Source: an uncultured SAR86 cluster bacterium (GTDB taxonomy: Bacteria; Pseudomonadota; Gammaproteobacteria; Magnimaribacterales; AG-339-G14). Taken from it: DNA of 64,000 bases. The position numbers and the translations under genes are program-made. The notes under the pieces were generated by a model, which had not been told where the DNA came from, made no database searches, and worked only from the letters and a program-made list of their open reading frames with translations. The DNA lies in assembly GCA_902536295.1 (NCBI GenBank), contig CACAWS010000001.1, positions 43,452-107,451 of the forward strand, given 5' to 3'. This document shows positions 48,012 to 64,000 of this stretch, piece after piece; positions within the stretch are counted from its first letter, which is position 1; each line of letters opens with the position of its first letter.

Positions 48012-48040
48012 AGTAAATAAAAGCTGTTATTATTCATTTA

Positions 48041-48892
48041 ATGTTACAGCAAATTGAGACTAAATATAAAGACTCTAGTTCCTCGTTAGGTGTTGAAATT
48101 ACAGATGTTAATTTAAATGAAAAATTAACTTTTGTAACAATCCAAAAAATTAGGTCTGTTTGGTTAGATAAGGGCGTAGCAATTTTTCCTAATCAAGATC
48201 TTACTCATGATGAATTTCAAAATTTTTCTTTAGAATTTGGAAATTTTGGCGATGATCCTTTCTTAGGCGGCTTGGATGAAAAACCAAACATTGTTGAGGT
48301 AAAGAGACTTGCGTCTGAAAAATCATCACCTTTTGGAGGCGGATGGCACTCGGACTGGTCATTTCAGGAGAATCCACCAGCCGCTACCTTTCTGCTGTCT
48401 AAAATTATTCCTCCAATTGGCGGAGATACTCTGTTTGCAAATACACAAATTGCTTATGAAGATTTAGATGCTGAAATGAAATCGAAAATAGATAATTTAA
48501 AAGTTGTGCATAGCGCTAAGCTGCCATATGCAGACGATGGATTTTATGCAACTGAAAAAGAACAAAGATCAATGAATATTATTACCTCTAAAGAAGCAAA
48601 AAAGGAACAGATACATCCTTTAGTGAAAGTTCATCCAGAAACTCAAAAAAAGGGATTATTCATTAATCCTGTTTATACTTCTCATATTTGTGGTTTTAAT
48701 GAAGAAGAATCATTTTTATTGTTATCAAAACTTTATGAACACATGACACAAGAAAAGTATATTTATCGCCACAAGTGGAATGAAAATATGCTTTTAATGT
48801 GGGATAACAGGACAGTTATGCATATGGCTGAAGGTGGTTACGATGGATATGACCGATTATTACACCGTATCACTATTGCCAACTCCTTTTAA
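48041..48892 (+). CDS. TauD/TfdA-family Fe(II)/2-oxoglutarate dioxygenase
   Basis: 283 aa. 'GGGWHSDWSF' (HxD facial triad), 'GGDTLFAN', 'MWDNRTVMH', 'RLLHR'. Confidence 0.8.
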   Translation: MLQQIETKYKDSSSSLGVEITDVNLNEKLTFVTIQKIRSVWLDKGVAIFPNQDLTHDEFQNFSLEFGNFGDDPFLGGLDEKPNIVEVKRLASEKSSPFGGGWHSDWSFQENPPAATFLLSKIIPPIGGDTLFANTQIAYEDLDAEMKSKIDNLKVVHSAKLPYADDGFYATEKEQRSMNIITSKEAKKEQIHPLVKVHPETQKKGLFINPVYTSHICGFNEEESFLLLSKLYEHMTQEKYIYRHKWNENMLLMWDNRTVMHMAEGGYDGYDRLLHRITIANSF

Positions 48893-50781
48893 TGAGTTTT
48901 TAGCCCCAGAAGTTTGTTATTTTTACGCCAATCTTTTAGCAGCTTGAAGTATTCTAAAGCCCCACCTCCATATGTATTATTTGCAGGATTTGTATTTGGC
49001 TTGCCTTCGTTATTGTAATATCCAGGCGTACAAGATTCTTGGAAACTTTGCATATTTCTAGCTTTTGAAACGATTGTATCTATCCAACCTTTTTCAGCTT
49101 CATCGGAAGCTTCTACATATTTTAAATTTTTACTATCAAGCTGTTTAAGGATATATGCTACGTGCGCACTTTGTTCGTCTAGAGAATGCGTGAAGTTTGC
49201 GGTCATCGGACCTTGACCAGGACCGTAAAAGAATGAGTTTGGAAAACCCTTCGAATGAATTCCGTGAAATGTAGCCAATCCATCTTTCCATTTTTCACTC
49301 AATGTGATTCCGCCAATCCCACTCACTTGATAACCACATCTTCTTGAGTAATCCGTTCCAACTTCAAAGCCGGAAGCAAAGATAATACAATCAACTTTAA
49401 ACTCTTGACCATTATGAATAATTCCTTCAGCGCTTATCTCTTTGACACCCTGACCATCTGTGTCAATTAATTCTACATTGTCATTATTGAATGCTTGCAA
49501 ATACTCATCGTGAAAACAAGGCCTTTTGCAGAGCTGCCTATAATATGGTTTTAAAGATTCTGCTGTATTTGGATCGTTAACTAATGCATCTGCTCTAGCT
49601 CGGACTTTTTCCATTTTTTGGAAGTCAACAATTTCGACTTTTCTATTTATGTCTTCACGCGAAACATATTTCATGAATTTATTTCTAATAAAGGTTCTTA
49701 GGCCATCTTCATAGAAATTTCTATTTAAAGGAGCTGATAAAACCCAACCTAGTAATACTAATTTAGAAGGTCCATTTTTCATCAACCCTCCAAGGATAGT
49801 TCTAAATATCTCAGTCCATCCATCATTTACTAAGTCTTTATTTGTAAAATTACCTGTCAAAAAGCCTTCAAAGTTTTCTCTACGCTCATCTTGCCACCCG
49901 GATTTTTGAGACTTGAACCACTCAATGTTAGTCTCAGTATTATTTCGTTCATCAATAGAAGAGGGCGTTCTTTGAAAGACATACAATTTTTGTGCACTTG
50001 CTGCCAAATGAGGAACACACTGTACAGCAGTTGCGCCTGTTCCAATAATCGCAACTTTTTTATCTTTCAAATTATCTAAGTTTCCGTATGAATCTCCCCC
50101 TGTATAGTCATAATCCCAGCGACTGGTATGGAATGTATGACCCTGATAATCATTGATCCCTTTCATTGCTGGCAGTTTTGGTCTATTTAAAAAGCCATTG
50201 GCATGAATAACATATCTCGCTTTAATAGAATCTTGACGATTAGTTTTAATGAGCCATAATTTTTCGTTCGCTAGCCATTTGACTTCATTGACTTCAGTTT
50301 GAAATAAAGCATTATTCCTAAGTGAAAACTTATCCGATAATATTTTGAAATAATCTAACGTTTCTGCAGCGTCGGTGTATTTGCGTTTAGGGACGAAATT
50401 AGTCTCTTCCAGAAGAGGGAAATAGATGTAAGATTCAATATCGCAAGATGCGCCTGGATATCTATTCCAGTACCAAGTGCCTCCAAAATCACCACCTTTT
50501 TCAATTATTCTAAAATCATTTAAACCTTGCTCTCTGAGTCTTGCACCGCTTAAAACTCCGCCAAACCCGCCGCCAATAATCACAGTATGATAAGTATTAG
50601 TATTAGGTTCTCTTGTAATTTTCTCTTCGATGTAAGGATCCTCGACAAAATATGAAAAGTCTCCTTTAACTTCAATGTACTGATCATTCCCCTCTACTTT
50701 TAATCTTTTGTCTCTTTCTAAACGATATTTAGATCTTAGAGCATCAGGGTCAAATGAAATATGTTGTTCTTGTAATGTCAT
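48889..50781 (-). CDS. Baeyer-Villiger-type flavin monooxygenase (type I BVMO)
   Basis: 630 aa. FAD 'GGGFGG'. 'GGTWYWNRYPGASCD' matches [A/G]GxWxxxx[F/Y]P[G/M]xxxD. 'YQGHTFHTSRWD' is a variant of the BVMO fingerprint FxGxxxHxxxW[P/D]. Second Rossmann 'IGTGATA'. Confidence 0.85.
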   Translation of the reverse strand: MTLQEQHISFDPDALRSKYRLERDKRLKVEGNDQYIEVKGDFSYFVEDPYIEEKITREPNTNTYHTVIIGGGFGGVLSGARLREQGLNDFRIIEKGGDFGGTWYWNRYPGASCDIESYIYFPLLEETNFVPKRKYTDAAETLDYFKILSDKFSLRNNALFQTEVNEVKWLANEKLWLIKTNRQDSIKARYVIHANGFLNRPKLPAMKGINDYQGHTFHTSRWDYDYTGGDSYGNLDNLKDKKVAIIGTGATAVQCVPHLAASAQKLYVFQRTPSSIDERNNTETNIEWFKSQKSGWQDERRENFEGFLTGNFTNKDLVNDGWTEIFRTILGGLMKNGPSKLVLLGWVLSAPLNRNFYEDGLRTFIRNKFMKYVSREDINRKVEIVDFQKMEKVRARADALVNDPNTAESLKPYYRQLCKRPCFHDEYLQAFNNDNVELIDTDGQGVKEISAEGIIHNGQEFKVDCIIFASGFEVGTDYSRRCGYQVSGIGGITLSEKWKDGLATFHGIHSKGFPNSFFYGPGQGPMTANFTHSLDEQSAHVAYILKQLDSKNLKYVEASDEAEKGWIDTIVSKARNMQSFQESCTPGYYNNEGKPNTNPANNTYGGGALEYFKLLKDWRKNNKLLGLKTH

Positions 50782-50832: not shown

Positions 50833-53800
50833 ATGAGGAATCTTTCATTTCTCTTTTTAATTTTTTTAGGTTCATGTGGCGGTGGCGGTGGCGGTGGAAG
50901 CTCATCAGGTCCTGAACCAATAGACGTGACATTACAAGGGAAGGTATTTACAGATAACTACATCTCTGGTGCAACAGTTTTTTTAGACGAAAATAATAAT
51001 CTCACTTTGGATTCAGACGAAACTTCTGTCATTACTGATTCTTCTGGAAATTTTTCAATAACTTTTCTTAACAATAAAAACGGTAATTTGGTGGCAACAG
51101 GAGGACAAAATTTAAGTTCGTCACTAACACTTGATGTTATGATTCACAGACTCACAGATTTAATTCCCACAAATACGAAAATTATCAGTCCCGTCACTAC
51201 TCTAGAGTGGACTTATCATGGAAATTTAGGCCACTTACAGGAAAGCATCTCAGCTGTAAGCGAAATTTTAGAATTAGATTCAGGTTTTCCGATTAGAGAT
51301 CCAATCAATCAAACAGGATACTTAAATGAAAATTTAGTTGAAAAAGGAGCGCAATTAGCAGTTTTATATCGTTCGTATGAGACTATTTCTGAAACCTTTG
51401 GCTTAGATAATTCCATGATTAGTTTTTTCTATACGCTGAGCGGAATAATTCATAATTTCAGATTAAATAATCCTTACATTAAATACAACTTAGAAAGTAT
51501 TGAATTAGACGGAATTCTTTCACAAGCTGGTGTAGCAGACCAAAGTTTACGAACAAATTTAGAAACATTTATAGGAGTTGTTCTTTCTCTAATGGAAATA
51601 AAAGATTCAGAAAATAAAGAAGTTCAAAATTCACTATTTTCATGGACAATTGATGGATTTCAATCAGAACTAGTAAGTTTAGCTTCTGGTGCTTTAAATG
51701 AAGCAGAAATTAATTCATTCTTAACTAATCCTATAAATTATGTCGCACTTAAGACTGGATTAAACACAATTGATGTGACACCTACTTTAAGTGTTAATCA
51801 AGATATTGTTCAACTTGATGAAGATGGATCAACTACTTTTAATATTCTTGATAATGATACTTATATACCTCAATTAATAGATCACTCGGTGTCTATTTCT
51901 GACCCCTCTAATGGAGAGGTTTCAGTTGTTAATCAATCGACAATAACTTATACCCCTAATCCAGATTTCTTTGGAATCGATAATATGAGTTACAACCTTA
52001 CTCAAAATGGAACAACTGTATCAGGTGAAATCAATATAACAGTTGTGGGTATAAATGATGCCCCAACAATTGATTATGCTTTACCAATCTCAGTTAACGA
52101 AAACCAAATTTCAGTTAGACAATTTAATCTCACAGATGTTGATAATGACGTCAATTTATCTGCTTCTTTATCTTTAGGAGGAATTGATGCAAATTATTTT
52201 TATCTAACTAAAGACTGCTCCGCTGGAGGGTGTCTTGCTGTTTTAAACTTTAAAAATACTCAAGATTATGAAACTAAAAACGCTTTTTCAGTTAATGTTA
52301 TTACTACCGATGGGATTACATCAAAAACAACACCCGTCACTGTCAACTTAAATAATTTAAACGATAATGCGCCATCAATTAGTCAAACGATTTTTTCTGT
52401 TCAAGAAAATCAGCTAGATATTAGTAATTCTTTTTTTACCGATCCAGATTGCCCTTTAGTTTTTAACGATACCTGTCCAGCTTCTTTCGAAGGAGGAAAT
52501 CCCTATATTTATAGTTTTACTGGTCTTGATGCCGAATGCATTGAATCCTCAAATACAGCAATACCTGGAAGAATAACTTTTAAAGATTCTTGCATGCCTA
52601 ATTTTGAAGCAAAAAATACTTATACATTTACATTGGCAATTTCAGATGGAGTTTATGTTGATACAGAAAATATTACCGTCAATATCTTAGATGTGAATGA
52701 TCCAGCAGTTTTATCCATTACTAGTCTTGATTTAGAAATTATGCCAATTAATGCCACTTCAAAAGTTTTTTCACTAAACCCTCAAGATGAGGACGGCGAC
52801 ACCGTATCTACAACAATCATAGTTAATTCATCTAGAGGAACGGCAAGTTTGAATGGCAATAATTTAACATTTGTAACAAATCCTGCATTACATGATCCAG
52901 AGTTATCTGAGTCTTATGCTGATTCCGTCACGTTAAGATTAAATGATGGCACGGAAAATAATGACTTTAATGTTTCTATAAATTTTAAATCGGATCCTTA
53001 TTATCAACATCAATGGCATTTGAATAATAGAAGCCAAAATAACTTTGCTACAAATAGTGGTAATGTTTCAGCTGATTTAAATGTTGATTCTGTCATTGCT
53101 TCAGGTTACGACGGTGACGGGGTTACTATCGCAATCATTGATTCAGGGACTGAAATAGCTCACGAAGATTTGGCAGCAAATATTTTGGTAAATCAATCTT
53201 ACGATTTTGGCGACGGAGACAATGACCCCACGCCACAATTTAATAGCGGAGATCATGCACATGGAACTGCTGTTGCGGGACTAGCGGCTGCAAGAGGATG
53301 GAATGATATAGGCGGCAGGGGAGTTGCTCCAAGAGCAAATCTAGTAGCTTACAATCTTTTAGGCGGAGAGAACCTTGTAGAGTATCAATCTTTTACAAAT
53401 TATATCGATGCTCTTGGCGGCTCCGACGGAGGAGCTAATACTTCGGTAGTAGACATTTTCAATATGAGTTTTGGAGGAATGGGTGGAAGTGCTTTTGATA
53501 CTTTTGGGCTCCCAGAAAGTATTTTGAGTGCTTATGAAAATGGAACTCAAGTTTTAAGATCAGGCAAAGGGGCTTTATATGTGAAGTCATCTGGTAATGG
53601 TTGGGGTCCCGGCTCAAGCTCAGAGGGCTATTGTTATTCAGGAGGAGTTGCATTTACAGAAAGCGCCCGAGATGAAAATTTTTCATGCACGATAGCAAGT
53701 TTTGACTCTGATAATACGGAGCCATATTTAATTACTACTGCTTCGCTAAACGCAAATGACGAAAGATCAAGCTACTCAACACCTGGAACTTCGGTATGGA

Positions 53801-54600
53801 TTTCTGGGTATGGTGGAGAATTTGGTGTAGTAGATCCAGCGATGTTAACAACCGATCTTGAAGGATGTAATAAAGGAATATCGACTAGTTCAGTTATCAC
53901 AAATGATACAAATTGTAATTACACTCATAGAATGAATGGTACCTCTTCAGCCGCTCCAATTTTATCTGGAGCAATTGCTTTAATTTTAGAAGCCAACCCC
54001 AATTTAACTTGGCGAGATGTGAAACACATCTTAGCTTCTACAGCAACTAAGATTGATGATGGATTTGAAAAAAATTTCCTAGGTCTTAATATTTATCAGT
54101 GGACTCAAAACGCAGCAGGATTTGAACATCATCCTTCTTATGGATTTGGTAAAGTAAATATTGCCAGTGCAATAGATAGCGCAGTTAACTATAGTTTGGG
54201 AAGTTTAGGAACAATGGCGAGTACTACTGGTAACCAAACTTCATTAAATGCACCATTTAATAGTTACACAGAAACTATTATGTCAGGAGCAACCATATCC
54301 ATAATTGCTCCAAATGGTAAAAGTAAGATAGATTTTGTAAAACTCAGTGTTGGATTCAATCATCCTGATCCTGAGCACGTGATGATAGAGCTTCTTTCTC
54401 CAGATGGCACAAGAATCACAGTTCTTCCTCCTTTCACTATTAAAACAACTAATCCTTCTGGTAATAGTTTTGACATTGGTATTAATTCTTTTTATAAAGA
54501 AAATATTCAAGGAGATTGGACCATAATAATGAGTGATCTCACAGATGATAATGTAGGCGGAACTTTAAATAACTGGAGCTTAAAAATATATGGGCATTAA
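50833..54600 (+). CDS. Large lipoprotein: cadherin-like repeat region + subtilisin/kexin-like S8 protease + C-terminal P (proprotein-convertase) domain
   Basis: 1255 aa. Lipobox 'FLGSC' followed by a Gly7-Ser3 linker. Repeated 'V.D.NDAP/NDNAP/NDPA' domain boundaries. S8 triad motifs 'AIIDSGTEIAHEDL', 'HGTAVAG', 'GTSSAAP'. Kexin-type entry 'DPYYQHQWHLNN'. P-domain 'LLSPDGTRITVL...GDWTIIMSD...GTLNNWSLKIYG'. Confidence 0.85.
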   Translation: MRNLSFLFLIFLGSCGGGGGGGSSSGPEPIDVTLQGKVFTDNYISGATVFLDENNNLTLDSDETSVITDSSGNFSITFLNNKNGNLVATGGQNLSSSLTLDVMIHRLTDLIPTNTKIISPVTTLEWTYHGNLGHLQESISAVSEILELDSGFPIRDPINQTGYLNENLVEKGAQLAVLYRSYETISETFGLDNSMISFFYTLSGIIHNFRLNNPYIKYNLESIELDGILSQAGVADQSLRTNLETFIGVVLSLMEIKDSENKEVQNSLFSWTIDGFQSELVSLASGALNEAEINSFLTNPINYVALKTGLNTIDVTPTLSVNQDIVQLDEDGSTTFNILDNDTYIPQLIDHSVSISDPSNGEVSVVNQSTITYTPNPDFFGIDNMSYNLTQNGTTVSGEINITVVGINDAPTIDYALPISVNENQISVRQFNLTDVDNDVNLSASLSLGGIDANYFYLTKDCSAGGCLAVLNFKNTQDYETKNAFSVNVITTDGITSKTTPVTVNLNNLNDNAPSISQTIFSVQENQLDISNSFFTDPDCPLVFNDTCPASFEGGNPYIYSFTGLDAECIESSNTAIPGRITFKDSCMPNFEAKNTYTFTLAISDGVYVDTENITVNILDVNDPAVLSITSLDLEIMPINATSKVFSLNPQDEDGDTVSTTIIVNSSRGTASLNGNNLTFVTNPALHDPELSESYADSVTLRLNDGTENNDFNVSINFKSDPYYQHQWHLNNRSQNNFATNSGNVSADLNVDSVIASGYDGDGVTIAIIDSGTEIAHEDLAANILVNQSYDFGDGDNDPTPQFNSGDHAHGTAVAGLAAARGWNDIGGRGVAPRANLVAYNLLGGENLVEYQSFTNYIDALGGSDGGANTSVVDIFNMSFGGMGGSAFDTFGLPESILSAYENGTQVLRSGKGALYVKSSGNGWGPGSSSEGYCYSGGVAFTESARDENFSCTIASFDSDNTEPYLITTASLNANDERSSYSTPGTSVWISGYGGEFGVVDPAMLTTDLEGCNKGISTSSVITNDTNCNYTHRMNGTSSAAPILSGAIALILEANPNLTWRDVKHILASTATKIDDGFEKNFLGLNIYQWTQNAAGFEHHPSYGFGKVNIASAIDSAVNYSLGSLGTMASTTGNQTSLNAPFNSYTETIMSGATISIIAPNGKSKIDFVKLSVGFNHPDPEHVMIELLSPDGTRITVLPPFTIKTTNPSGNSFDIGINSFYKENIQGDWTIIMSDLTDDNVGGTLNNWSLKIYGH

Positions 54601-55135
54601 ACACATTAATTTTCTTTTTCTATGTTTGTTTTCCTTGGAATTCTTTTCTTTAATGAAGGTAGATTTAACTGACGTTCCTAAATCTGAAGAGGAAGAAGTG
54701 ATCGGTAAAGCAAAAATCTTAAAAGATTCCATTGTTTTTATTGATAAAGAAAATGAGTTTAATTTTTCTGGTTTTAAACAAAAAGGAGTTTTTAAATTTG
54801 TCGAAGATATTAATGACTTAGATTCAAATAATTTATTTTTTCAAAATTTTTCATTCGATCCTGATGGAACTGATCAAAATTATAAAGTAGTTCAGTTTCC
54901 TGATAATAGTTATGGAATAACAGATGGAGCCTTAATAATTTTTTTTCAAGACAACGTTGATAGGGTAATATTCGCTTCGAATTATGAGCTCATTTTAATT
55001 GATAATTATTCTTTTGGAGCATCTTTTAAGTCCAATAATTATAGTGAAATTGAATCTTTGATCGAGGAAATTGAAAATGATGTGAGGGTAAAAAAAGTTG
55101 AATTTAATTTAATGTTGGATAATAAAATTAATTAA
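54590..55135 (+). CDS. Secreted hypothetical protein, translationally coupled to the S8 protease gene
   Basis: 181 aa. 11-nt overlap with the upstream stop. N-terminal signal-like 'INFLFLCLFSLEFFSL'. The C-terminal 'SFGASFKSNNYSEIESLIEEIENDVRVKKVEFNL' recalls the end of subtilisin I9 propeptides (weak, by eye). Confidence 0.5.
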   Translation: MGIKHINFLFLCLFSLEFFSLMKVDLTDVPKSEEEEVIGKAKILKDSIVFIDKENEFNFSGFKQKGVFKFVEDINDLDSNNLFFQNFSFDPDGTDQNYKVVQFPDNSYGITDGALIIFFQDNVDRVIFASNYELILIDNYSFGASFKSNNYSEIESLIEEIENDVRVKKVEFNLMLDNKIN

Positions 55136-55146
55136 TAAAAATGTAT

Positions 55147-55222
<76 letters not shown>

Positions 55223-55287: not shown

Positions 55288-55312
55288 TTGGTCACAACTT
55301 TGGTCACAACTT
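55288..55312. repeat. Tandem direct repeat, 2 x 12 bp (tggtcacaactt)
   Basis: 'ttggtcacaactttggtcacaactt' read directly. Two exact head-to-tail copies. Confidence 0.85.
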
Positions 55313-55489: not shown

Positions 55490-55682
55490 ATTAAAAATGT
55501 TTTTAGTTCAAAAATAGGATTTAAAGAAACATTTCAAAATATATTTGAAATTTTAACAGAATTTACAGTATTTACTGTTATCGGTTTTGTTATGTGGCTT
55601 GGAATAGGTTTTGGGTACTTATTATTGGAATTTATTATATTTTCGATTTTCTAGGCGTGATAGGGTCAGACACAAAGAGAAA

Positions 55683-55790
55683 CTAACCCTATCTAATCTG
55701 TCTAATCTACCTAATCTACCTAATCTATCTAATCTATCTAATCTACCTAATCTACCTAATCTATCTAATCTATCTAATCTATCTAATCTC
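55683..55790. repeat. 9-bp tandem repeat array (CTAATCTAY, 11 regular copies plus one degenerate) with 36-bp higher-order periodicity
   Basis: 'ctaatct' recurs every 9 bp from 55693 to 55789. The variable dinucleotide follows the pattern ac,ac,at,at,ac,ac,at,at,at. Confidence 0.9.
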
Positions 55791-55802
55791 CCAAACCACT
55801 GC

Positions 55803-55831
55803 TTGCATACTAAAAAATACGTAGCTAAAGT
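55803..55831 (+). promoter_or_regulatory. Promoter candidate for the 55862 cassette
   Basis: TTGCAT (55803-55808), a 17-nt spacer, then TAAAGT (55826-55831). A strong SD (AGGAGA, 55853-55858) precedes the ATG at 55862. The repeat array ends 13 bp upstream of the -35. Confidence 0.3.
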
Positions 55832-55861
55832 GCACACCGCTTTAATGAATTCAGGAGAAAT

Positions 55862-56569
55862 ATGGAGAAAGAAATGATATCAAGGTTGGCTAATATTTAT
55901 AGCCAAACAAAAAATTATTTTAATGAAAATAAGGGTGAGGATCCTGACATTTTTTTAAGAGTCGGTAGCAAAGAAGAGATAGGGTTTTCAATTCTTTATA
56001 CTCCTCCCATTTACAATCCCAAAATTTTAATTTGCGGTCAAAATCCAGGCAACTTTGGTTTTTCATGGGATGATGAATTCAATGATGAGATGTTGAAAGG
56101 AGAGGTGCCATCAGTTAATACTTATACAGCAGGAAGAGATAATCATTCTTATCCATTTGCTTTTGCAAAATTCATCAGATCTCAATTTGACTCAACTTCA
56201 GAAAGAAAAGAGATTTTAAATAATAATACAGTTGGAATGAATATTTGGCCTTGCCAATATCATGGAACACCCAAATTTAGCTCAAAAGAAAGAAAGGAGT
56301 ATTTAAAAACCTTCCATAGATTCAGCATACAAGTAATAAGAGCCATAAATCCTGAGAATATTATCTGCATAAGCGTGAAGGCTTTTGATGTTCTGAATAA
56401 AAAAAAAGCAACACAAATAAAAAAACATGAACATGGCGGCAGATATTCTGGTAGAGGTTTTTTTGGAGAGATACCTGTATATCTTGTTGGGCACCCTGCG
56501 AGCTATACTCCAAAAGAACTCCTTTATGAAGCATTAGATGATGCAATAGGGGAAATAGAGTCAAAGTGA
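55862..56569 (+). CDS. Uracil-DNA glycosylase superfamily-like protein (MUG/SMUG-like GxNPG motif)
   Basis: 235 aa. 'PKILICGQNPGNFG' at about aa 53-66 resembles UDG motif A (G[IM]NPG in families 2 and 3). 'VYLVGHPASY' at about aa 205-214 resembles motif B (HPS/HPA). The motif spacing of about 150 aa fits the UDG fold. By-eye assignment only. Confidence 0.5.
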   Translation: MEKEMISRLANIYSQTKNYFNENKGEDPDIFLRVGSKEEIGFSILYTPPIYNPKILICGQNPGNFGFSWDDEFNDEMLKGEVPSVNTYTAGRDNHSYPFAFAKFIRSQFDSTSERKEILNNNTVGMNIWPCQYHGTPKFSSKERKEYLKTFHRFSIQVIRAINPENIICISVKAFDVLNKKKATQIKKHEHGGRYSGRGFFGEIPVYLVGHPASYTPKELLYEALDDAIGEIESK

Positions 56570-56808
56570 GTAAAGTAAATAATCCTTCGCACTATAAAAT
56601 TTCTCATCAAATGGCAGAGGTTATTTGGAAGTCATTGTATGAGTTGAGAGATAAAGAAAATGCCAAAGCTCTTTCTAAGTTAATGATTAATCAAGGATGT
56701 CAGGAAATAGAAGTTGAGGATATGTCTCTCATATTGGCTTTTTGGAAAGACTATATGGAAGATCATAATCTTTTATTTCTCAGTCTTGAAGAAATGGATT
56801 TTCATTAA
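56566..56808 (+). CDS. Small acidic hypothetical protein (80 aa), GTGA-coupled to the UDG-like gene
   Basis: GTG start overlapping the upstream TGA. The N-terminal 'VNNPSHYK' is reminiscent of the phage DUF3310 'HPSHY' opening (weak). The C-terminal half is strongly acidic ('QEIEVEDMS...YMEDHNLLFLSLEEMDFH'). Confidence 0.4.
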   Translation: MSKVNNPSHYKISHQMAEVIWKSLYELRDKENAKALSKLMINQGCQEIEVEDMSLILAFWKDYMEDHNLLFLSLEEMDFH

Positions 56809-56910
56809 TTTATATAAAAGTATAAAAGTAACTTTTGAAGTAAAGAGGCATATGAAGAGAGAATTAAGAAAAATTTTGGATCCCTACTTTAAAAACCAGT
56901 AGGTAAATTA

Positions 56911-57351
56911 ATGAAAGATAAGTTAGAACAAATGAAAACCTTTAAATACCAGAATCCAGAAGAACTTCGTGTATTTGAATTTGGCGATGAAGAATATGCG
57001 GAATGTCTAAAAACAAAAAAAGAATCCGAAGATAAATTGGAAGAAGAGCAAAAACATTTGAGCGAATGGGAAAGTTTGACCTTAAGAACATCGGTCTCAA
57101 CTATTCAATCCTGGGAATTAAAAGAAATAGCAGTCGAATTAGATTCTAAATTTAAATTTCAAGTAAATTCCACCATGCTAGAAACAAATGAACTTCGAGA
57201 AAGTTGTAACGATGCTCGAAAAGAGTCGATGTCATTTATTCAAAGTCACCTGAAGATAATTGAAGCATGCGATGAAAATTTAAAACTAATGGATGAATGG
57301 AATAGATTTCTAGATCATTGGATTAAAAAAGAAGACTTCGATGAAGCATAA
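56911..57351 (+). CDS. Acidic, predicted helical/coiled-coil hypothetical protein
   Basis: 146 aa, Glu/Lys-rich heptad-like sequence. No recognisable catalytic motif. Confidence 0.45.
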   Translation: MKDKLEQMKTFKYQNPEELRVFEFGDEEYAECLKTKKESEDKLEEEQKHLSEWESLTLRTSVSTIQSWELKEIAVELDSKFKFQVNSTMLETNELRESCNDARKESMSFIQSHLKIIEACDENLKLMDEWNRFLDHWIKKEDFDEA

Positions 57352-57416
57352 TTAGACATGTAAGTTCCTAAGATAGAGAGTTGCTAAATTTTGAAACGAT
57401 ATGGGACAATAATTTT

Positions 57417-57854
57417 ATGAAATATTTATTAATTATTTTAGTTTTGTTCTCAGGTTTTAGTTTTTCTATTTCTAAGGATGAATTAAGAGAAAGATATAAA
57501 AACGTAAATGAAGAAGATATTTTATTAGTTTGCGATACTAGTCAAACAAATCCAGATTTAAAATTACGAATTCTTTTTACTATAAGTGAAAAATCTGATT
57601 GGGTTAATTTAGAAATGTTTAATGATGATGATGTTTATCAATTAGCTAATATATTCAAGATGAAAGAAACTACACGTGAATTTAAAATAGATATAGGGAC
57701 TGATTTTGACATTTTGATAGATAGATTCACTCTAGAAATGAAATATGACAGAAGTAAAATGCAATGCAGAAAGGTTGATAGATTCAGTTATTTAATTGCA
57801 AGAGCAGAAGTACAAATAATGGCAGAAGAAATTCGAGCTAAACGTAAAATTTAA
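57417..57854 (+). CDS. Secreted hypothetical protein
   Basis: Start moved to the ATG at 57417, giving the signal peptide 'MKYLLIILVLFSGFSFS'. Two Cys residues. No family recognised. Confidence 0.5.
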   Translation: MKYLLIILVLFSGFSFSISKDELRERYKNVNEEDILLVCDTSQTNPDLKLRILFTISEKSDWVNLEMFNDDDVYQLANIFKMKETTREFKIDIGTDFDILIDRFTLEMKYDRSKMQCRKVDRFSYLIARAEVQIMAEEIRAKRKI

Positions 57855-57892
57855 CCAATTAATATAAGGGTTCATAAAAAGAAGGGGGAGAT

Positions 57893-58267
57893 ATGAATAA
57901 TTTATCAATTTTAAAAATTACATTAAGGATATTCGGTGTAGCATTCATTTTAATAATGCCGATGATGAAATTGGATCCACTTGGAGGATGGGCTTGGAGT
58001 CCAGGACAATGGGAATATGAAATGATGATTCAAGGGGTGTATATGACCCTAGGAGTAATGATGCTAATTGCTGCGAATGATCCTTTAAAAAATCCTTTAT
58101 TTGTTTGGTTTGTAGTGTGGAGTAGTTTGGTACACGGCGGGATTATGGCCTATCAGGCGATAATTGATACTCATGAAATGGGACACTTCCTTGGCGATAT
58201 CCCAGCTTTATTTATCCTTGCAATAATTGCTGGCTATAATTTAAGAAAATTACAAACGAGTTCATAA
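57893..58267 (+). CDS. Small integral membrane protein (about 4 TM), unknown function
   Basis: 124 aa. Strong SD (AAGGGGGAG) upstream. Hydrophobic segments with conserved-looking 'AANDP' and 'HGGIMAYQA'. Confidence 0.55.
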   Translation: MNNLSILKITLRIFGVAFILIMPMMKLDPLGGWAWSPGQWEYEMMIQGVYMTLGVMMLIAANDPLKNPLFVWFVVWSSLVHGGIMAYQAIIDTHEMGHFLGDIPALFILAIIAGYNLRKLQTSS

Positions 58268-58272
58268 GTACA

Positions 58273-58665
58273 ATGGAAAAAAAACTTTTTAGAAATGGTC
58301 CATATGCAGATTTTTTTTCGCAAGGCGTGCAAACGGGAAATATTCTTACTTTGGCTGGTCAATTAGGAGACGATTTAGAAGGTAACGTTCCAAACGATCT
58401 GCAAGGTCAGATGGAAAATTGCTACAAAAATATTGAAAATGTTTTGAAAGAATTTAATGCAACACTAGACAATATTATTGACGAAACATGGTTTGTTACA
58501 GACATAGAAGAATGCATGACAAACGTAAGTGATATTTTTGATTCAAGAGAGAAAATTTTTAATTGTAAACCAGAAGTCTCTCAAACATTAATTGGAGTAT
58601 CTTCCTTAGTGGACCCTAAATATAAAATAGAAATTAAATGTATTGCTTACTTAGCAAAAGTTTAA
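58273..58665 (+). CDS. RidA/YjgF/TdcF-family protein (reactive-intermediate deaminase fold)
   Basis: 130 aa. 'GNILTLAGQLG', 'QMENCYKNIENVLKEFNATLDNIIDETWFV', C-terminal 'IEIKCIA'. Confidence 0.75.
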   Translation: MEKKLFRNGPYADFFSQGVQTGNILTLAGQLGDDLEGNVPNDLQGQMENCYKNIENVLKEFNATLDNIIDETWFVTDIEECMTNVSDIFDSREKIFNCKPEVSQTLIGVSSLVDPKYKIEIKCIAYLAKV

Positions 58666-59079
58666 ATGAATAGTAAATCGAAAAATTTGCCTTTAAATCA
58701 AGCTTTATATACATGGTGGTTTGGAATTATTCTTTTTTCCTTGATCTGGCCAATGTTTATTGGTCCTTACATAGCATTGACTAATCCATCTTTTTTTGGA
58801 GGGCCTGAGGTGACAAACATAACCTTAAGCAGTTCTCTGTATGCGGCAAGAAATCTAGCTGTAGGGGTTGCCTTTCTTTTAGCTATTTATTTAAGAAATG
58901 CATCAATGTTATTTATTTTAATAGTGGTCAGATTGATAACAGATTTAATTGACGCACCATTATTTTATATTTTTAGAGAACCGAATTTAATAGGCCAAAT
59001 TATTATTTTTACTTTTTTATGTTATTTGCCAGCAATATTTGGATTACGTTATCTGTGGCAAAAAATTAATTACAAATAG
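58666..59079 (+). CDS. Small integral membrane protein (4 TM), unknown function
   Basis: 137 aa. The start abuts the RidA stop. Four hydrophobic helices. Confidence 0.55.
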   Translation: MNSKSKNLPLNQALYTWWFGIILFSLIWPMFIGPYIALTNPSFFGGPEVTNITLSSSLYAARNLAVGVAFLLAIYLRNASMLFILIVVRLITDLIDAPLFYIFREPNLIGQIIIFTFLCYLPAIFGLRYLWQKINYK

Positions 59080-59089
59080 ATAATTATTG

Positions 59090-60139
59090 ATGATCAATCA
59101 CCCAAATGAGTTGTCTACAAAATTTCTTGAAAATTTATTTGAAACCCATCAATCAAATTTAATAGATTTCAAATTTGAATCTGTCGGTTCAGGACAAGTA
59201 GGAGATTGCTATAGAATTTTTTTAAATTGGAAAATTAAAGATAGCTTGCCTGAAACCTTTATTGCAAAGTGCCCAGCAAATGACCAAGCAAGTAGAGAAA
59301 CAGCAAGAAATCTTAATTTGTATGAAATTGAGACTTCGTTTTATAAACATTTATCCAGTAGATGCTCCGCAAGAGTTCCAGATGTCTTTTATTCTGAATA
59401 TGATTCGGTCATAAAGGATGGAACAATATTTTTAGAAGATATGCATCCTGCCAAACAAATACCTCAAATGAATGGTTGTTCAGAATTTGAAGTAAAAAAA
59501 ATTCTTAAAGAGGCAGCTGCATTACATAAAAGTTTCTGGAACGATGAAGAATTATTAACCTATCCTTGGCTAACTTATAGTGTTAGTGAAGATAGAAAAA
59601 AGTTTGTAGCTGATCTGCTACCTGTCGTTTACCCAGAATGGAAGCAAAGATATAAGGGAAGGATCAATGAAGAAATTTTCGATATGGGTGATGAATTAAT
59701 TGCTAATTATAAAAAGTATTCTGAGGCCAATGCAGGTCCAATGACTTTAGTCCAAGGTGACTTAAGATTAGATAATATTTTATTTGATGATGAAAGCAAC
59801 GCTGCTATTTTGTTAGATTGGCAAACAGCTTCGATTGGACTGCCTTTGAATGACATTGCGTATTGTATTTCAACTAGTTTTGCTGATCCTCAAGAAAGAG
59901 CAATGTCTGAAGAAAGTTTATTGAGAGAATACTATGATTTACTTGAAGTTGAAGCCAACTATTCTTTTGAAGAAGCCTGGGATGATTACTGTCGTGGATC
60001 GTTTGTGGGTTTTTTAATGGCTGTAATGTCGTCTATGATAGTTGAAAGAACCGAAAGAGGTGATGAAATGTTTGCAGTAATGGCTGAAAGGTCAGGCTGG
60101 CAAGCCTTAGATTTAGATGCTTTATCTTTTTTAAAATAG
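59090..60139 (+). CDS. Phosphotransferase-family kinase (APH/CHK/EcKL-like)
   Basis: About 349 aa from the ATG at 59090. 'GSGQVGDCYR' nucleotide loop, 'FIAKCP' Lys, catalytic loop 'LVQGDLRLDNILF', 'LLDWQ' metal-binding Asp. Confidence 0.75.
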   Translation: MINHPNELSTKFLENLFETHQSNLIDFKFESVGSGQVGDCYRIFLNWKIKDSLPETFIAKCPANDQASRETARNLNLYEIETSFYKHLSSRCSARVPDVFYSEYDSVIKDGTIFLEDMHPAKQIPQMNGCSEFEVKKILKEAAALHKSFWNDEELLTYPWLTYSVSEDRKKFVADLLPVVYPEWKQRYKGRINEEIFDMGDELIANYKKYSEANAGPMTLVQGDLRLDNILFDDESNAAILLDWQTASIGLPLNDIAYCISTSFADPQERAMSEESLLREYYDLLEVEANYSFEEAWDDYCRGSFVGFLMAVMSSMIVERTERGDEMFAVMAERSGWQALDLDALSFLK

Positions 60140-60140
60140 T

Positions 60141-60842
60141 ATGACTAAAGAAAGAAACATTATTGCAATTGGAGGTGGGGGTTTTGGTCGTAATCCTGGA
60201 GAAGGGATAATAGAAGAATACATCTTGAAGCAAACTAGAAAGAAAAAACCTAATATCTGTTTTATACCAACTGCTACAGGAGACCATGATTCTTATAAAG
60301 TTAATTATTATGAGACTTTTTCAAAATTAAATTGTAATCCAGTTCATTTGGATTTATTTAAAAGAACACCAGATCTAAAACAATTAATCTCTGAACAAGA
60401 TGCAATTTTTGTAGGGGGAGGCAATACAAAAAGTATGTTGGCTGTTTGGAAAGAATGGCAATTAGATAAATTTCTTAAACAAGCTTATCAGGCTGGCACA
60501 ATAATGAGTGGCGTAAGCGCTGGAGCAATTTGCTGGTTTCAAAATGGAATTACTGATTCCTGGAGTTCCAGCTTAAAAGTTATGCCGTGTTTAAATTTTA
60601 TTAAAGGAACATGTTGTCCTCATTACGATGAAGAACCTGAAAGAAAGCCTATGGTAAAAAAACTATTAATCGCAAATAAATATAAAAATATTTTTGCAAT
60701 TGATGGAGGAGCTGCTTTGCATATCAAAAACGAAAACGTTTTTAAATCTGTTAGTTTTAAAATTGATAAAAACGCTCACACAGTGAGAATTGATAACAAA
60801 AATATAATTGAAAAAAGTTTTAGAAAGGTCATACTGACTTAA
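60141..60842 (+). CDS. Peptidase S51 (dipeptidase E-like) / class-I glutamine amidotransferase-like
   Basis: 233 aa. 'ICFIPTAT', 'IFVGGGNT', nucleophile elbow 'SGVSAGA', 'PHYDEE'. Confidence 0.78.
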   Translation: MTKERNIIAIGGGGFGRNPGEGIIEEYILKQTRKKKPNICFIPTATGDHDSYKVNYYETFSKLNCNPVHLDLFKRTPDLKQLISEQDAIFVGGGNTKSMLAVWKEWQLDKFLKQAYQAGTIMSGVSAGAICWFQNGITDSWSSSLKVMPCLNFIKGTCCPHYDEEPERKPMVKKLLIANKYKNIFAIDGGAALHIKNENVFKSVSFKIDKNAHTVRIDNKNIIEKSFRKVILT

Positions 60843-60871: not shown

Positions 60872-61117
60872 ATGGATTTTATTACATCAATTTATTCTTC
60901 TTTTTCAACAACACTTCTTTTTGGTTATGTGATTGGGAGTCTATTTATTATCACGCCACTTTATTTGTACACAAGATTTTATGAGTGGTTCTCAAATAAG
61001 ACTTCTTATTTTAATAAACGCGGAAACTTATTTGAAAAATTAGTTTGGATCCTTTTCTTAATTTATTTTGTGTGTTTTTTTATTTATTCAATATTTTACG
61101 TATTTATAATTAGATAA
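60872..61117 (+). CDS. Small two-TM hypothetical membrane protein
   Basis: 81 aa, two hydrophobic helices. No motif recognised. Confidence 0.35.
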   Translation: MDFITSIYSSFSTTLLFGYVIGSLFIITPLYLYTRFYEWFSNKTSYFNKRGNLFEKLVWILFLIYFVCFFIYSIFYVFIIR

Positions 61118-61122
61118 ATTTT

Positions 61123-62421
61123 TTAAAGAAAAATAAACTTCGAAATAAATATCAAAGTAAGAAACCAGGCCCCTGATGATATTTTATATATTTCGCCAGA
61201 CCCAATTTTTAAAACAACATAAGACAAAAATCCAAGAGCAATTCCATCGGCAATAGAAAAGGTTAAAGGAATCATTACGATAATTATCAAGGCAGGTAAT
61301 AAATCAATCATATTTGACCAATTCAATTTTTCCATACTACTTAGCATCAAGATTGATACATAAATTAATGCACCAGCTGTTGCTGCAGCAGGAACCATAA
61401 GCGCTATTGGAGATAAAAATGTGGTCAATATAAAAAATAGACCAATAAAAATTGCAGTCAAGCCTGTTCTACCTCCTGCTTCCACGCCAGCCGAACTTTC
61501 AACATAACTAGTTACCGGAGAACATCCAAAAAAAGTTCCGATAAAGCTAACACTGCTATCAGCTTTAAGAGCTTTATCAAGATTTTTTGCATTACCGTCA
61601 GCATCAACCAAATTAGCTCTGTTAGCAACTCCAAGCAAGGTACCAGTGGTATCAAAAAGATTTACAAATAAAAATGACATGATCACTGTAATCATTGATA
61701 TATTCAAAGCACCTAAAATATCAAGTTTTAGAAAAACAGGTGCTAGCGATGGCGGATAAGATATTATGCCGTTGTATTGAGTAAAACCTAATCCTAAAGA
61801 TATTAAAGTTGTTAATATGACTCCAATGAGTATAGCTCCAGGAATTTTTCTAACCGATAAAACTGAAATAATCAAAAATCCAATTGCTGCTACAAGGGTT
61901 TCTTGATTTGAAAGATCGCCAAGTTTTAAAAAAGTTGCATCATTACTAACAATTATTCCACCACTTTTTAGCCCTATAAAACCTATAAATAAGCCAACTC
62001 CCGCACCCATAGCTATTCTTAAATTAAGAGGAATGCTATCTATCATCCAACTTCTAAGTTGTGTAACACTCATTAGAAAAAATAAAATACCAGCTAAAAA
62101 GACAGCGCCTAGAGCAACTTCCCATGAATAACCCATTTCACCTACTACAGTAAAGGTAAAGAACGCATTCAACCCCATACCAGGAGCCAAACCTACTGGC
62201 CAATTAGCAAAAAGTCCCATCAACAAGCAGGCCAATGCTGCCGCCAAACAGGTTCCAACAAAAACCGCCCCTTGATCCATTCCAGTAAGAGACATGATTT
62301 GAGGATTAACAAAAACTATGTAGGCCATCGTTACAAAAGTCGTGAAACCTGCAAGTAATTCCTTTTGAATACTGGAGTTGTATTCTTTAAGTTTGAATAA
62401 ATCTTCTACAAGTTGCTTCAT
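61123..62421 (-). CDS. NCS2/AzgA-family purine (adenine/guanine/hypoxanthine) permease
   Basis: 432 aa. 'ELLAGFTTFVTMAYIVFVNP', 'GLAPGMGLNAFF', 'TSYVESSAGV..GGRTGLTA'. Confidence 0.88.
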   Translation of the reverse strand: MKQLVEDLFKLKEYNSSIQKELLAGFTTFVTMAYIVFVNPQIMSLTGMDQGAVFVGTCLAAALACLLMGLFANWPVGLAPGMGLNAFFTFTVVGEMGYSWEVALGAVFLAGILFFLMSVTQLRSWMIDSIPLNLRIAMGAGVGLFIGFIGLKSGGIIVSNDATFLKLGDLSNQETLVAAIGFLIISVLSVRKIPGAILIGVILTTLISLGLGFTQYNGIISYPPSLAPVFLKLDILGALNISMITVIMSFLFVNLFDTTGTLLGVANRANLVDADGNAKNLDKALKADSSVSFIGTFFGCSPVTSYVESSAGVEAGGRTGLTAIFIGLFFILTTFLSPIALMVPAAATAGALIYVSILMLSSMEKLNWSNMIDLLPALIIIVMIPLTFSIADGIALGFLSYVVLKIGSGEIYKISSGAWFLTLIFISKFIFL

Positions 62422-62607
62422 AACGAATAAGTTGATTATAAAGTATACCTATATCTAGTAGATTTAAATTTAAATGTTAAGAATGTACTAACTTTGTCTT
62501 TTTTAGAACATCGTAAATCAATTTTTTGAAATAAATCAGTGCATTTAATTAATCAAAGTCAAAAATAATAAAATTTTTTGTTACTTTTTTTTATTAGATA
62601 ATTAAAT

Positions 62608-64000
62608 ATGGAAAAGAAAAATTATTTAAAACACTCTCTTATTTTAATATTAACTGTTTTTTTTAGCGGATACTCCGCCTCTCAAGCTTTTTTAGAAGAA
62701 GTTATTGTCACTACTGAAAAAAGAACTGAGAGCGTCCAAGATGTATCTCAAGCTGTCACAGCAATTACGTCCTCTGAGATTGAAACTAAGAATATAAATT
62801 CTATGGTTGATTTAAGTGCGATCGTACCTGGCGTAACTGTTGCTAAAAACGAGGGTTATAAAACTATTATTTCAATTCGTGGAATTGGTAATGAAACTAA
62901 CCAAAATGCGATTGCTGCACCTTCTGTTGCCTTTCATCTAGACGGAGTATTTATTGCTTCGCCATTTTCTTTATTAACCGATTTTGTTGATATAGATAGA
63001 ATAGAAGTTATTAGAGGACCTCAAGGTACTTTATTTGGTCAAAATTCTACAGCAGGAGCAATTAATGTCGTTACTTCTGCGCCCTCTTTAGATGAAGAAT
63101 CAAGTATATTGAAGATGTCTCTTGGTAATTACAACATGAAAAAATTGGCAACTTCATTTAATGTGCCAATTTCTGATTCTGTAGCAACTAGTTTTTCATT
63201 TTCTGGTCACAAACGCGATGGGTATGCTTTTAACAATACTTTGCAACAAGAACTAGACGATGCTAACGACTTTAGTATGAGGAATGATTGGTATTTTCAA
63301 TTGTCTGATACATCTTCTTTAAGATTTTTTGCTCAATATTACGACATGGACCGAAATGGTTCCGCCATGAAAGGTATTGATGATCTAACACCACATCCAA
63401 GAGAGCTCGATCAAGACGCTCCATCCATGCAGGTTTTAACTTCTTCAATTTATGCTGCAATATTTGAACAAGATTTAGGCTTCGCAAATTTAAAAATGCT
63501 CGCTAGCTCTCAAAGAGATGATATAACTGTAAGAAGAGATAACGACAGACATTCTTATGGAACCGCTGCAACGTCTATTCCTCCCTTACCTCCCGCAAAT
63601 GTAGGAATTTACGTTTCATCAGAATATAGATATGAATCTTCTTTAGTAGAAACTACAACTTTTGAAGTCAACTTAGTATCAAATGAGCCACTTATGAACG
63701 GAAAATTAGATTGGACTATTGGTGCTTTTTATATGGAACATGAAATTCAAAATAAGATTAGAGAGTATATAAGTGGTGATGACAACATTATTGAATACGA
63801 TTGTAATGAGCCTTTTGCTGATACTACCGTTCCAGGTACTGTTGCAACAAACAGTGAAACTGTTTTACCTTTTGCTAACCCGAATAATGTAGTGGGTGAT
63901 GGCACAGCAACTTGTTTTGTGGTTGGTGGAGAAGTTCCCACTTTCCAGGCTGAGCTTGGTTTTGTAACTGATGCTTTCCCATCTAGAGAATCATTATCTT
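62608..64000 (+). CDS. TonB-dependent receptor, N-terminal about 464 aa (runs off the window end)
   Basis: Not in the ORF track because it has no stop. I translated the whole frame by hand and found no stops. Signal peptide 'LILILTVFFSGYSASQA', TonB-box-like 'EEVIVTTEKR', plug 'ISIRGIGNE...FHLDGVF...IEVIRGPQGTLFGQNSTAGAINVV'. Confidence 0.8.
   Translation, partial: MEKKNYLKHSLILILTVFFSGYSASQAFLEEVIVTTEKRTESVQDVSQAVTAITSSEIETKNINSMVDLSAIVPGVTVAKNEGYKTIISIRGIGNETNQNAIAAPSVAFHLDGVFIASPFSLLTDFVDIDRIEVIRGPQGTLFGQNSTAGAINVVTSAPSLDEESSILKMSLGNYNMKKLATSFNVPISDSVATSFSFSGHKRDGYAFNNTLQQELDDANDFSMRNDWYFQLSDTSSLRFFAQYYDMDRNGSAMKGIDDLTPHPRELDQDAPSMQVLTSSIYAAIFEQDLGFANLKMLASSQRDDITVRRDNDRHSYGTAATSIPPLPPANVGIYVSSEYRYESSLVETTTFEVNLVSNEPLMNGKLDWTIGAFYMEHEIQNKIREYISGDDNIIEYDCNEPFADTTVPGTVATNSETVLPFANPNNVVGDGTATCFVVGGEVPTFQAELGFVTDAFPSRESLS

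Follow-up and report, generated by a model that had tools for sequence, protein, structure and literature searches.

Genes and features of the locus

We analysed a stretch of 64,000 nucleotides from an uncultured bacterium of the SAR86 cluster (GenBank assembly GCA_902536295.1, contig CACAWS010000001.1, positions 43,452 to 107,451; the whole stretch is called the window below), and in it a pair of genes that lies downstream of a tRNA-Ala gene. Gene 1 encodes a 235-residue protein related to the uracil-DNA glycosylase (UDG) superfamily, and gene 2 encodes an 80-residue partner that directly follows it. Two further genes, 3 and 4, continue on the same strand. The four open reading frames (ORFs) are present where an original prediction, made by a model from the sequence alone, had seen a four-gene cassette led by a UDG-like enzyme. 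The features of the locus are listed in Table 1.

Table 1. Features of the gene pair and its surroundings, in window coordinates.
Feature	Position	Strand	Basis
Gene 1, 235-residue UDG-superfamily glycosylase-like protein	55862-56569	+	ORF list, Pfam, AF2, Foldseek, family alignments
Gene 2, 80-residue helical, mildly acidic partner	56566-56808	+	ORF list, conservation, dN/dS
Gene 3, 146-residue acidic helical protein, variable third slot	56911-57351	+	tblastn, pairwise comparisons
Gene 4, signal-peptide protein of ~145 residues, passenger gene	57420-57854	+	tblastn, blastn, junction comparison
Segment 97-99% identical to GCA_902524135.1 (L028)	55650-58050	.	blastn, sliding identity
tRNA-Ala (anticodon GGC), landmark upstream of the variable island	55147-55222	+	ARAGORN, blastn
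Tandem array, 11 copies of the 9-bp unit CTAYCTAAT	55689-55789	.	Tandem Repeats Finder (TRF), repeat finding, pattern search, upstream comparison
Promoter-like element TTGCAT-17 nt-TAAAGT	55803-55831	+	sequence, upstream comparison

Genes 1, 2 and 3 are real genes under purifying selection, with ratios of nonsynonymous to synonymous substitution rates (dN/dS) of 0.05-0.21, 0.09-0.29 and 0.11, respectively. Gene 4 encodes a hydrophobic, signal-like segment at the N-terminus of its product, and its longest ORF begins with a TTG at position 57381. None of the four proteins matches a family above threshold in PHROGs, NCBIfam or PADLOC, and the gene 3 product is without a family match in Pfam as well. 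The G+C content is ~32% across the window, and the region of the four genes has no distinct composition.

Gene 1 encodes a protein with a predicted UDG-superfamily fold

The UDG-like reading of gene 1 goes back to two motifs, ILICGQNPG and LVGHPASY. They correspond to residues 55-63 and 208-215 of the protein, with about 150 residues between them, and both proved to be conserved among homologues as motifs A and B of UDGs. A structural model built by AlphaFold2 (AF2) on the homologues of the protein (pLDDT 75, pTM 0.80) has beta-strands at residues 55-58, 123-126, 166-170 and 204-209. GQNPG (G59-Q-N61-P62-G), N127 and HPAS (H211) are found at the C-terminal ends of strands 1, 2 and 4 of the model, a placement that, as modelled, is the catalytic-loop arrangement of the UDG fold. 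When the model was compared with the Protein Data Bank (PDB) by Foldseek, the top 50 matches were all MUG, UdgX, family-4 UDG or TDG structures (E = 4.7e-5 to 1e-3, probability mostly 1.00), the best one being the MUG structure 1mtl (E = 4.7e-5). The TM-scores are modest, at 0.35-0.59. Moreover, phage UDGs and polymerase-fused UDG domains were the only matches in a library of viral structures.

A word-indexed search of 5.8 billion clustered proteins recovered 11 homologues, all of them marine-metagenomic. When 1.84 billion representatives were searched exhaustively with a profile, 129 clusters were obtained at E<=1e-3, 34 of them also at E<=1e-10. Sequence patterns of the close clade have no match in 185,579 species-representative genomes. 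A family alignment comprises 40 sequences that share 19-74% identity with the window protein. In it, each of G59, N61, P62, N127 and H211 is kept by at least 90% of the sequences, and 15 of the 40 members match the Pfam UDG family (PF03167) at E<=0.01, with a best value of E = 9.2e-9. Searches of the PDB with the single 235-residue protein or with a profile of the close clade gave nothing useful. The 40-sequence profile, however, reached the family-4 UDG 4zbx (E = 5.7e-5) as well as 1l9g, 1vk2 and 1ui0. The match to these family-4 structures spans the C-terminal half including motif B, and in the alignment to 4zbx GQNPG falls onto GEAPG and HPT onto HPA. Because the fold is found and the motif residues are conserved, the UDG reading stands, and we consider it highly probable that the gene 1 product has a UDG-superfamily fold in a very divergent form.

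Gene 2 is coupled to gene 1 in close relatives

The comparisons that follow are based on about 30 related loci (numbered with the prefix L), which were collected by a metagenome scan and exact look-ups and then searched by tblastn with all window proteins. The 80-residue gene directly follows the enzyme gene in all relatives that are at least 65% identical and for which enough downstream DNA is available. In most lineages, including the window, the stop codon of the first gene and the start codon of the second overlap by four nucleotides, which read GTGA (GTG over TGA) in the window and ATGA in relatives. The coupling that had been proposed from this overlap is thus a property of the whole close clade. 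Within it the partner diverges faster than the enzyme, with 51-79% as compared to 65-89% identity; in L001, for example, the values are 53% and 75%.

Homologues of the 80-residue protein form six clusters in the 5.8 billion proteins. Their conserved positions comprise NP..Y, IW, MI.QGCQ, SL..FWK.Y and a terminal H. The protein had been described as net acidic, especially in its C-terminal half. This is correct, since its isoelectric point (pI) is 5.0, its net charge is -6 and the C-terminal half holds 10 D+E vs 1 K+R, but the protein is only mildly and not extremely acidic. Its predicted structure consists of three helices (pLDDT 66), and a Foldseek search with this model returned chance-level helical matches only, the best with E = 1.8. 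The proteins Ugi, SAUGI and p56, which inhibit UDGs, have folds that contain beta-sheet and target the host Ung, and nothing links the 80-residue protein to any of them.

Enzyme homologues at 53% identity or less lack the 80-residue gene and often stand alone (L007, L008/L025, L027, L029-L037). The absence of the partner from these distant relatives argues against an obligatory antidote, and the 80-residue protein is better seen as a lineage-specific accessory. With the three-helix prediction and the chance-level Foldseek matches added, the earlier proposal that genes 1 and 2 encode a glycosylase and its DNA-mimic inhibitor finds no support.

Three further leads concern the family of the partner. 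A likeness of its N-terminal NNPSHY to the phage family DUF3310 (PF11753) had been suggested, but neither the window protein nor any of 11 homologues has a Pfam match to it at E<=10. Matches to DUF4359 were sub-threshold only (E = 0.005-0.011). Finally, longer members of the enzyme family (P0019) have a C-terminal extension, which was considered as a fusion clue for the 80-residue protein; the two are unrelated.

Genes 3 and 4 are not inherited with the pair

The four genes do not form one cassette as originally thought. By tblastn, the gene 3 protein is present only in the two nearest relatives, L009 and L028, and the third slot of the other lineages is occupied by unrelated helical acidic proteins of 119-203 residues. 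A single fast-evolving family in this slot is not established, as the proteins, in a five-sequence set, share only a short and weak similarity around an SEW motif (pairwise E = 0.001-0.01). L009, with 98.6% identity over genes 1-3, has no gene 4. This precise indel has the start codon of gene 4 as one boundary and that of the following DUF6632 gene as the other, and it crosses a similar stretch of ~19 nt (ATGAAWWATTTATYAATT); the positions compared are 57420-57891 of the window and about 1667-1685 of L009. Only genes 1 and 2 are co-inherited, and the functional unit is made up of these two genes. As a side observation, the DUF6632 gene in L009 has taken over the region upstream of the missing gene 4.

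The segment has been exchanged between divergent genomes

The counterpart of the segment in Table 1 is positions 5790-8190 of L028. The identity of 97-99% extends over the repeat array and all four genes and reaches into the beginning of the DUF6632 gene, whereas the flanks are only 70-76% identical, with syntenic stretches at window positions 47454-50738 and 60872-63770 (70-74%). On the right-hand side the identity decays gradually, reaching 83% by 58500-58950, as expected for homologous recombination. The sharp step in identity indicates that ~2.5-3 kb have recently been exchanged horizontally, or recombined, between two genomes that are divergent elsewhere.

Both genomes carry the upstream tRNA-Ala, and they differ in the insertions around it. 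The window has, upstream of the tRNA-Ala, a 1255-residue secreted subtilase-like protein with cadherin-like repeats and a 181-residue ORF (50833-55135), and further downstream an EcKL/APH-type kinase and an S51 peptidase (59087-60842), all of them missing from L028. L028, in turn, carries additional genes in the interval from the tRNA to the cassette. The tRNA-Ala neighbourhood as a whole is a hot spot where genes come and go, and here the cassette is resident in this recombination hot spot and does not belong to an intact element.

Genomic contexts of related pairs and enzymes

The original prediction had also suggested acquisition next to a tRNA gene, and in this point the relatives agree with the exchanged segment of the window. 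In L010 and L011, 280-370 bp separate the pair from an upstream tRNA-Ile(GAT). In L015/L016 the gene of a large serine recombinase immediately precedes the pair, and the 3' end of that gene reads into tRNA-Ala; in L015 the recombinase (62-1633) runs antisense into the 3' part of the tRNA (51-126). Such an arrangement would fit the integration of an element into the tRNA gene whose end it restores. No second attachment (att) site copy and no island-bounding repeats were found within the 10.8 kb of L015. The pair of L015/L016 is then followed by a 659-residue protein which matches the PADLOC candidate system PDC-S41 (E = 1e-272).

Mobile-element genes are also found near more distant family members, which lack the 80-residue gene. 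A tyrosine integrase (Phage_integrase, E = 2e-15) lies directly upstream of a 35%-identity member in L029 (15-1951), and another one 2.4 kb upstream of the homologue in L037. L027 is near a relaxase, L030 near TraG/VirD4 and StbA, and L031 near an rve transposase. The L029 homologue is followed by a 147-residue protein with an OGFr_N domain (E = 3e-7), and in L007 a 147-residue gene product is encoded after the homologue, followed by an RNase_T exonuclease.

Some distant members are accompanied by genes for nucleases. L025 (148-1651, equivalent to L008 132-1643) has two UDG-like genes in tandem. The first encodes a protein of 224 residues with SLNPG and PHLS motifs, which aligns to the family over its full length in hhalign (E = 2e-4), and the second a 242-residue GQNPG homologue. 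Downstream lie a 1122-residue helicase-nuclease with RNase_H_2 and AAA_11/AAA_12 helicase domains, whose C-terminus is MkoA-like in PADLOC, and an HSDR_N protein. The locus looks like a candidate multi-gene DNA-targeting system. In L034 (2717-4212), from an Eremiobacteraceae metagenome-assembled genome (MAG), the gene for a LEM-3-like GIY-YIG nuclease overlaps the start of the homologue by ~12 nt, an overlap that points to an operon of glycosylase and nuclease. Nearby lies a Ro60/TROVE gene. Considering the exchanged segment and these contexts together, we regard the pair as a mobile unit of two genes with fairly high confidence.

Upstream region of the pair

The pairs of L015/L016 and L028 are preceded by the same tRNA-Ala as in the window; in L010/L011 tRNA-Ile(GAT) takes its place. 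Between the tRNA and gene 1 lies the tandem array, directly 5' of the promoter-like element. A pattern search gave 10 matches where 0.43 are expected. Every close relative has a short-period array at the equivalent place, and the unit varies by lineage, as seen by comparing L028, L010, L011, L001, L013/L014 and L025. It is CTAYCTAAT x10 with another Y pattern in L028, CTCCCRAT in L010, CTATCYAAT and CTTTATAAT in L011 and CTCTAAAT in L025. All arrays have in common an ATCT core at a spacing of 8-9 bp. Such an array could be a phase-variable (contingency) promoter, an array of binding sites or a recombination hot spot.

The position of the promoter-like element is kept in the relatives, with the -10 variants TAGAGT, TATAGT and TACTAT. 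A consensus promoter scan did not call the TTGCAT-17 nt-TAAAGT element, and it is from its conservation that we infer a probable promoter. An AGGAG ribosome-binding site (55853-55857) precedes the ATG of gene 1 by five bases. Apart from the array, a perfect 12-bp direct repeat, TTGGTCACAACT (x2.1), is present at 55288-55312, 66 bp past the tRNA-Ala, and the stretch that holds it is still ~76% conserved with L028.

A possible role in defence and its alternatives

A precedent for UDG-related proteins on mobile DNA is provided by the Brig enzymes. Brig1 is an anti-phage glycosylase of the UDG superfamily that excises alpha-glucosyl-hydroxymethylcytosine (alpha-glucosyl-hmC) (PMC11078745). Brig2, also anti-phage, acts on 5-aminoethyl-deoxyuridine (5-aminoethyl-dU) and related bases (bioRxiv 10.1101/2025.10.29.685425), and Brig3 acts against phages on 5-hmC together with its operon partner BapA, which widens its range (bioRxiv 10.64898/2026.02.25.707755). 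All three are weakly similar to canonical UDGs and are encoded on mobile or defence-island DNA.

The explanation that we favour, tentatively and as something short of probable, is that genes 1 and 2 form a mobile cassette of an uncharacterised UDG-clade glycosylase and a small coupled accessory, most probably serving defence against DNA with non-canonical pyrimidines. The cassette would be a self-promoted, horizontally mobile unit of two genes. Its enzyme would be a monofunctional DNA glycosylase of a very divergent, uncharacterised clade of the superfamily, in which the Asn of motif A (GQNPG) may position the catalytic water, N127 after beta2 may read the flipped base and the His of motif B (HPAS) may stabilise the leaving group. 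The predicted three-helix protein of gene 2, held in a presumably fixed stoichiometric coupling through the stop/start overlap, would act as a lineage-specific accessory, be it a modulator, a specificity factor or a regulator of the enzyme. By analogy with Brig1, Brig2 and Brig3, the most likely role would be the defence of the host or of the element itself: the enzyme would excise non-canonical pyrimidines, uracil-derived or 5-substituted, from invading phage DNA, and the resulting abasic sites would block phage replication. We propose the defence role because the cassette lies in a hypervariable island downstream of a tRNA gene, because it moves between genomes and because of the Brig analogy.

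A number of observations weigh against this explanation. At the level of the single protein, the match of the window protein to PF03167 (E = 0.0068, 16.9 bits) stays under the gathering score of 24.3, and PADLOC, PHROGs and NCBIfam give no match above cut-off. The family is not joined to that of Brig1, which its authors delimited through PSI-BLAST (PMC11078745): in hhalign, Brig1 and the 40-sequence alignment match with a probability of 24.7%, over the C-terminal 100 columns only. As to mobility, tblastn with the window protein gave zero matches in 72,556 plasmids and 50,697 phage genomes, tblastn with two distant family members gave zero in the 72,556 plasmids, and viral contigs scanned by sequence pattern gave none either. 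Neither an integrase nor an att duplication of the tRNA-Ala 3' end is present in the window, and Pfam and PADLOC recognise no defence gene beside the cassette. The pair adjoins ychF-pth-rplY in L001, and the distant homologues of L032, L033 and L035 are found in ordinary chromosomal surroundings. What the analysis shows are the fold, the conserved motifs, the coupling, the purifying selection, the mobility and the contexts; the catalytic activity, the class of substrate, the role in defence and the action of the partner are inferred.

Three other explanations were weighed. In the first, the enzyme would serve the element that carries it, in repair or counter-defence, by starting the repair of uracil that arises from host deaminases or in transferred single strands, with the small protein as a helper. 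The distant homologues near a relaxase (L027) and near a type IV secretion system (T4SS) coupling protein and a plasmid partition gene (L030) would fit such a role. So would the phage UDG domains, which are common and were the sole viral structural matches, and the Asn and His motif chemistry, which is that of glycosylases for uracil and 5-substituted uracil. However, the searches of plasmids, phage genomes and viral contigs, which came back empty for the window protein and, in the case of plasmids, for the two distant members too, speak against it. Moreover, the window segment is without transfer or replication genes, and the neighbour of the pair in L015 is a defence candidate and not an anti-defence gene. 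We therefore judge this explanation to be unlikely.

In the second, the 80-residue protein would be a dedicated inhibitor or antitoxin that silences a self-harmful glycosylase as a DNA mimic or as a plug of the active site, and the release of the enzyme upon infection or loss of the element would result in abortive infection or addiction. The stop/start overlap and the strict co-occurrence within the marine clade are what one would expect of such a pair, as are the faster evolution of the partner (illustrated by L001), its acidic C-terminal half and its location in a mobile segment. The homologues at 53% identity or less, however, do without a partner, so the enzyme has no intrinsic need of an antidote. 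Besides, the partner, all-helical by prediction, is without a structural match, unlike the inhibitors with beta-sheet mentioned above, and its acidity is mild. The active-site residues, furthermore, are those of ordinary UDGs specific for damage or modification and not of the variants known to attack normal bases. Both the silencing of the enzyme and its release in abortive infection or addiction thus appear quite improbable. A more specific version, that the 80-residue protein is a new kind of regulator which keeps a self-damaging or broadly acting glycosylase switched off as long as no phage infects and the element is retained, is a long shot. If it were true, the pair would be an abortive-infection or addiction module that relies on a glycosylase and has a helical inhibitor fold not seen before, and the hypervariable repeat array before the promoter would tune or switch its expression.

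The third explanation, an ordinary host glycosylase of base-excision repair, chromosomally encoded as a back-up for uracil or mismatches, that happens to lie in a variable region, with the 80-residue gene as an unrelated neighbour, has in its favour the UDG fold, the conserved residues of catalytic type and the unremarkable chromosomal contexts of some homologues, but is very unlikely in view of the patchy occurrence (11 close homologues among 5.8 billion clustered proteins, and none in the species-representative genomes by close-clade patterns), the high identity of the segment as compared to its flanks, the genomic positions and flanking tRNAs that vary by lineage, the recombinases adjacent in several relatives and the consistent coupling of the 80-residue gene.

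If the defence reading of the pair is correct, it would have consequences beyond this locus. Base-excising defence enzymes (Brig1-3 and the Dag families) have been described only since 2024, so far from soil libraries, integrons and cultured bacteria, and the pair would extend this mode of defence to a marine bacterium of an abundant, uncultured, low-GC type. It would add a UDG clade which current family libraries do not recognise and which travels with a dedicated small partner without a fold match. Marine phages carry many unexplored DNA modifications, so the enzyme could directly help to show which of them are important in the ocean, and might serve as a new reagent for their detection. Should the partner prove to be an inhibitor, this would be the first UDG-fold enzyme that is encoded together with its own protein regulator.

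Comparison with known systems

No family-level membership is seen for the gene 1 product in UDG families 1-4. The family-4 UDGs (the UDGa of Thermus, Thermotoga and Sulfolobus) provide the only solved structures that the family profile reaches at the sequence level. They carry an Ala in motif A, however, where the window protein has an Asn. Membership in family 4 was rejected: the 40-sequence alignment has no conserved Cys quartet for an iron-sulphur (Fe-S) cluster, and the window protein scores 15.7 and 16.8 bits with the NCBIfam family-4 models (TIGR00758 / NF040953), far under their cut-offs of 125 and 250. Membership in family 1 (UNG) was rejected as well, since the window protein has GQNPGN and HPASYT instead of GQDPYH and HPSPLS, and no Ung was matched in the PDB or NCBIfam.

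More is shared with SMUG1 and MUG/TDG. Like these, the window protein has Asn instead of Asp in motif A (G-x-N-P-G), and like SMUG1 it has a His-Pro motif B. The motif A Asn is that of MUG and SMUG1, and the motif B His occurs in SMUG1 as well as in families 1 and 4. The window protein differs in the Gln before the motif A Asn, which is as in the GQDPY of family 1, in an N-terminal helical extension of ~50 residues and in a long insert between motif A and beta2. There was no sequence-level match to any SMUG, MUG or TDG chain with the single protein or with profiles. As judged from the motifs, the combination of motif A Asn and motif B His appears closest to SMUG1-type enzymes.

The 80-residue protein shares with Ugi, SAUGI and p56 that it is small, net acidic and genetically associated with a UDG-fold protein. 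Those three are phage or SCCmec proteins directed against the host family-1 Ung, and they are not encoded together with their target. An inhibitor fold of the Ugi, SAUGI or p56 type was rejected for the 80-residue protein on the basis of its predicted helices, its Foldseek matches and its pI. With respect to a type II toxin-antitoxin-like pair, the two genes are strictly kept together in the clade of at least 65% identity, and from more distant homologues the partner is absent.

In its proposed function the pair is nearest to the Brig enzymes. Motif A of Brig1 is GLNPG, of the same x-N-P-G type as in the window protein. The Brig enzymes are also encoded on mobile or defence-island DNA and are weakly similar to canonical UDGs, as is the case here. 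No Brig entry was among the PDB matches of the Foldseek and profile searches, and Brig2 and Brig3 are likened to gene 1 by description and not by sequence. Brig3, like the gene 1 product in its pair, goes together with a small operon partner, and BapA is the described precedent for a helper, although it is an ASCH-like beta-barrel hydrolase whereas the partner here is a predicted helical protein of 80 residues. Based on these analogies, we propose that gene 1 may work like a Brig enzyme, a proposal that is separate from membership in the Brig1 family.

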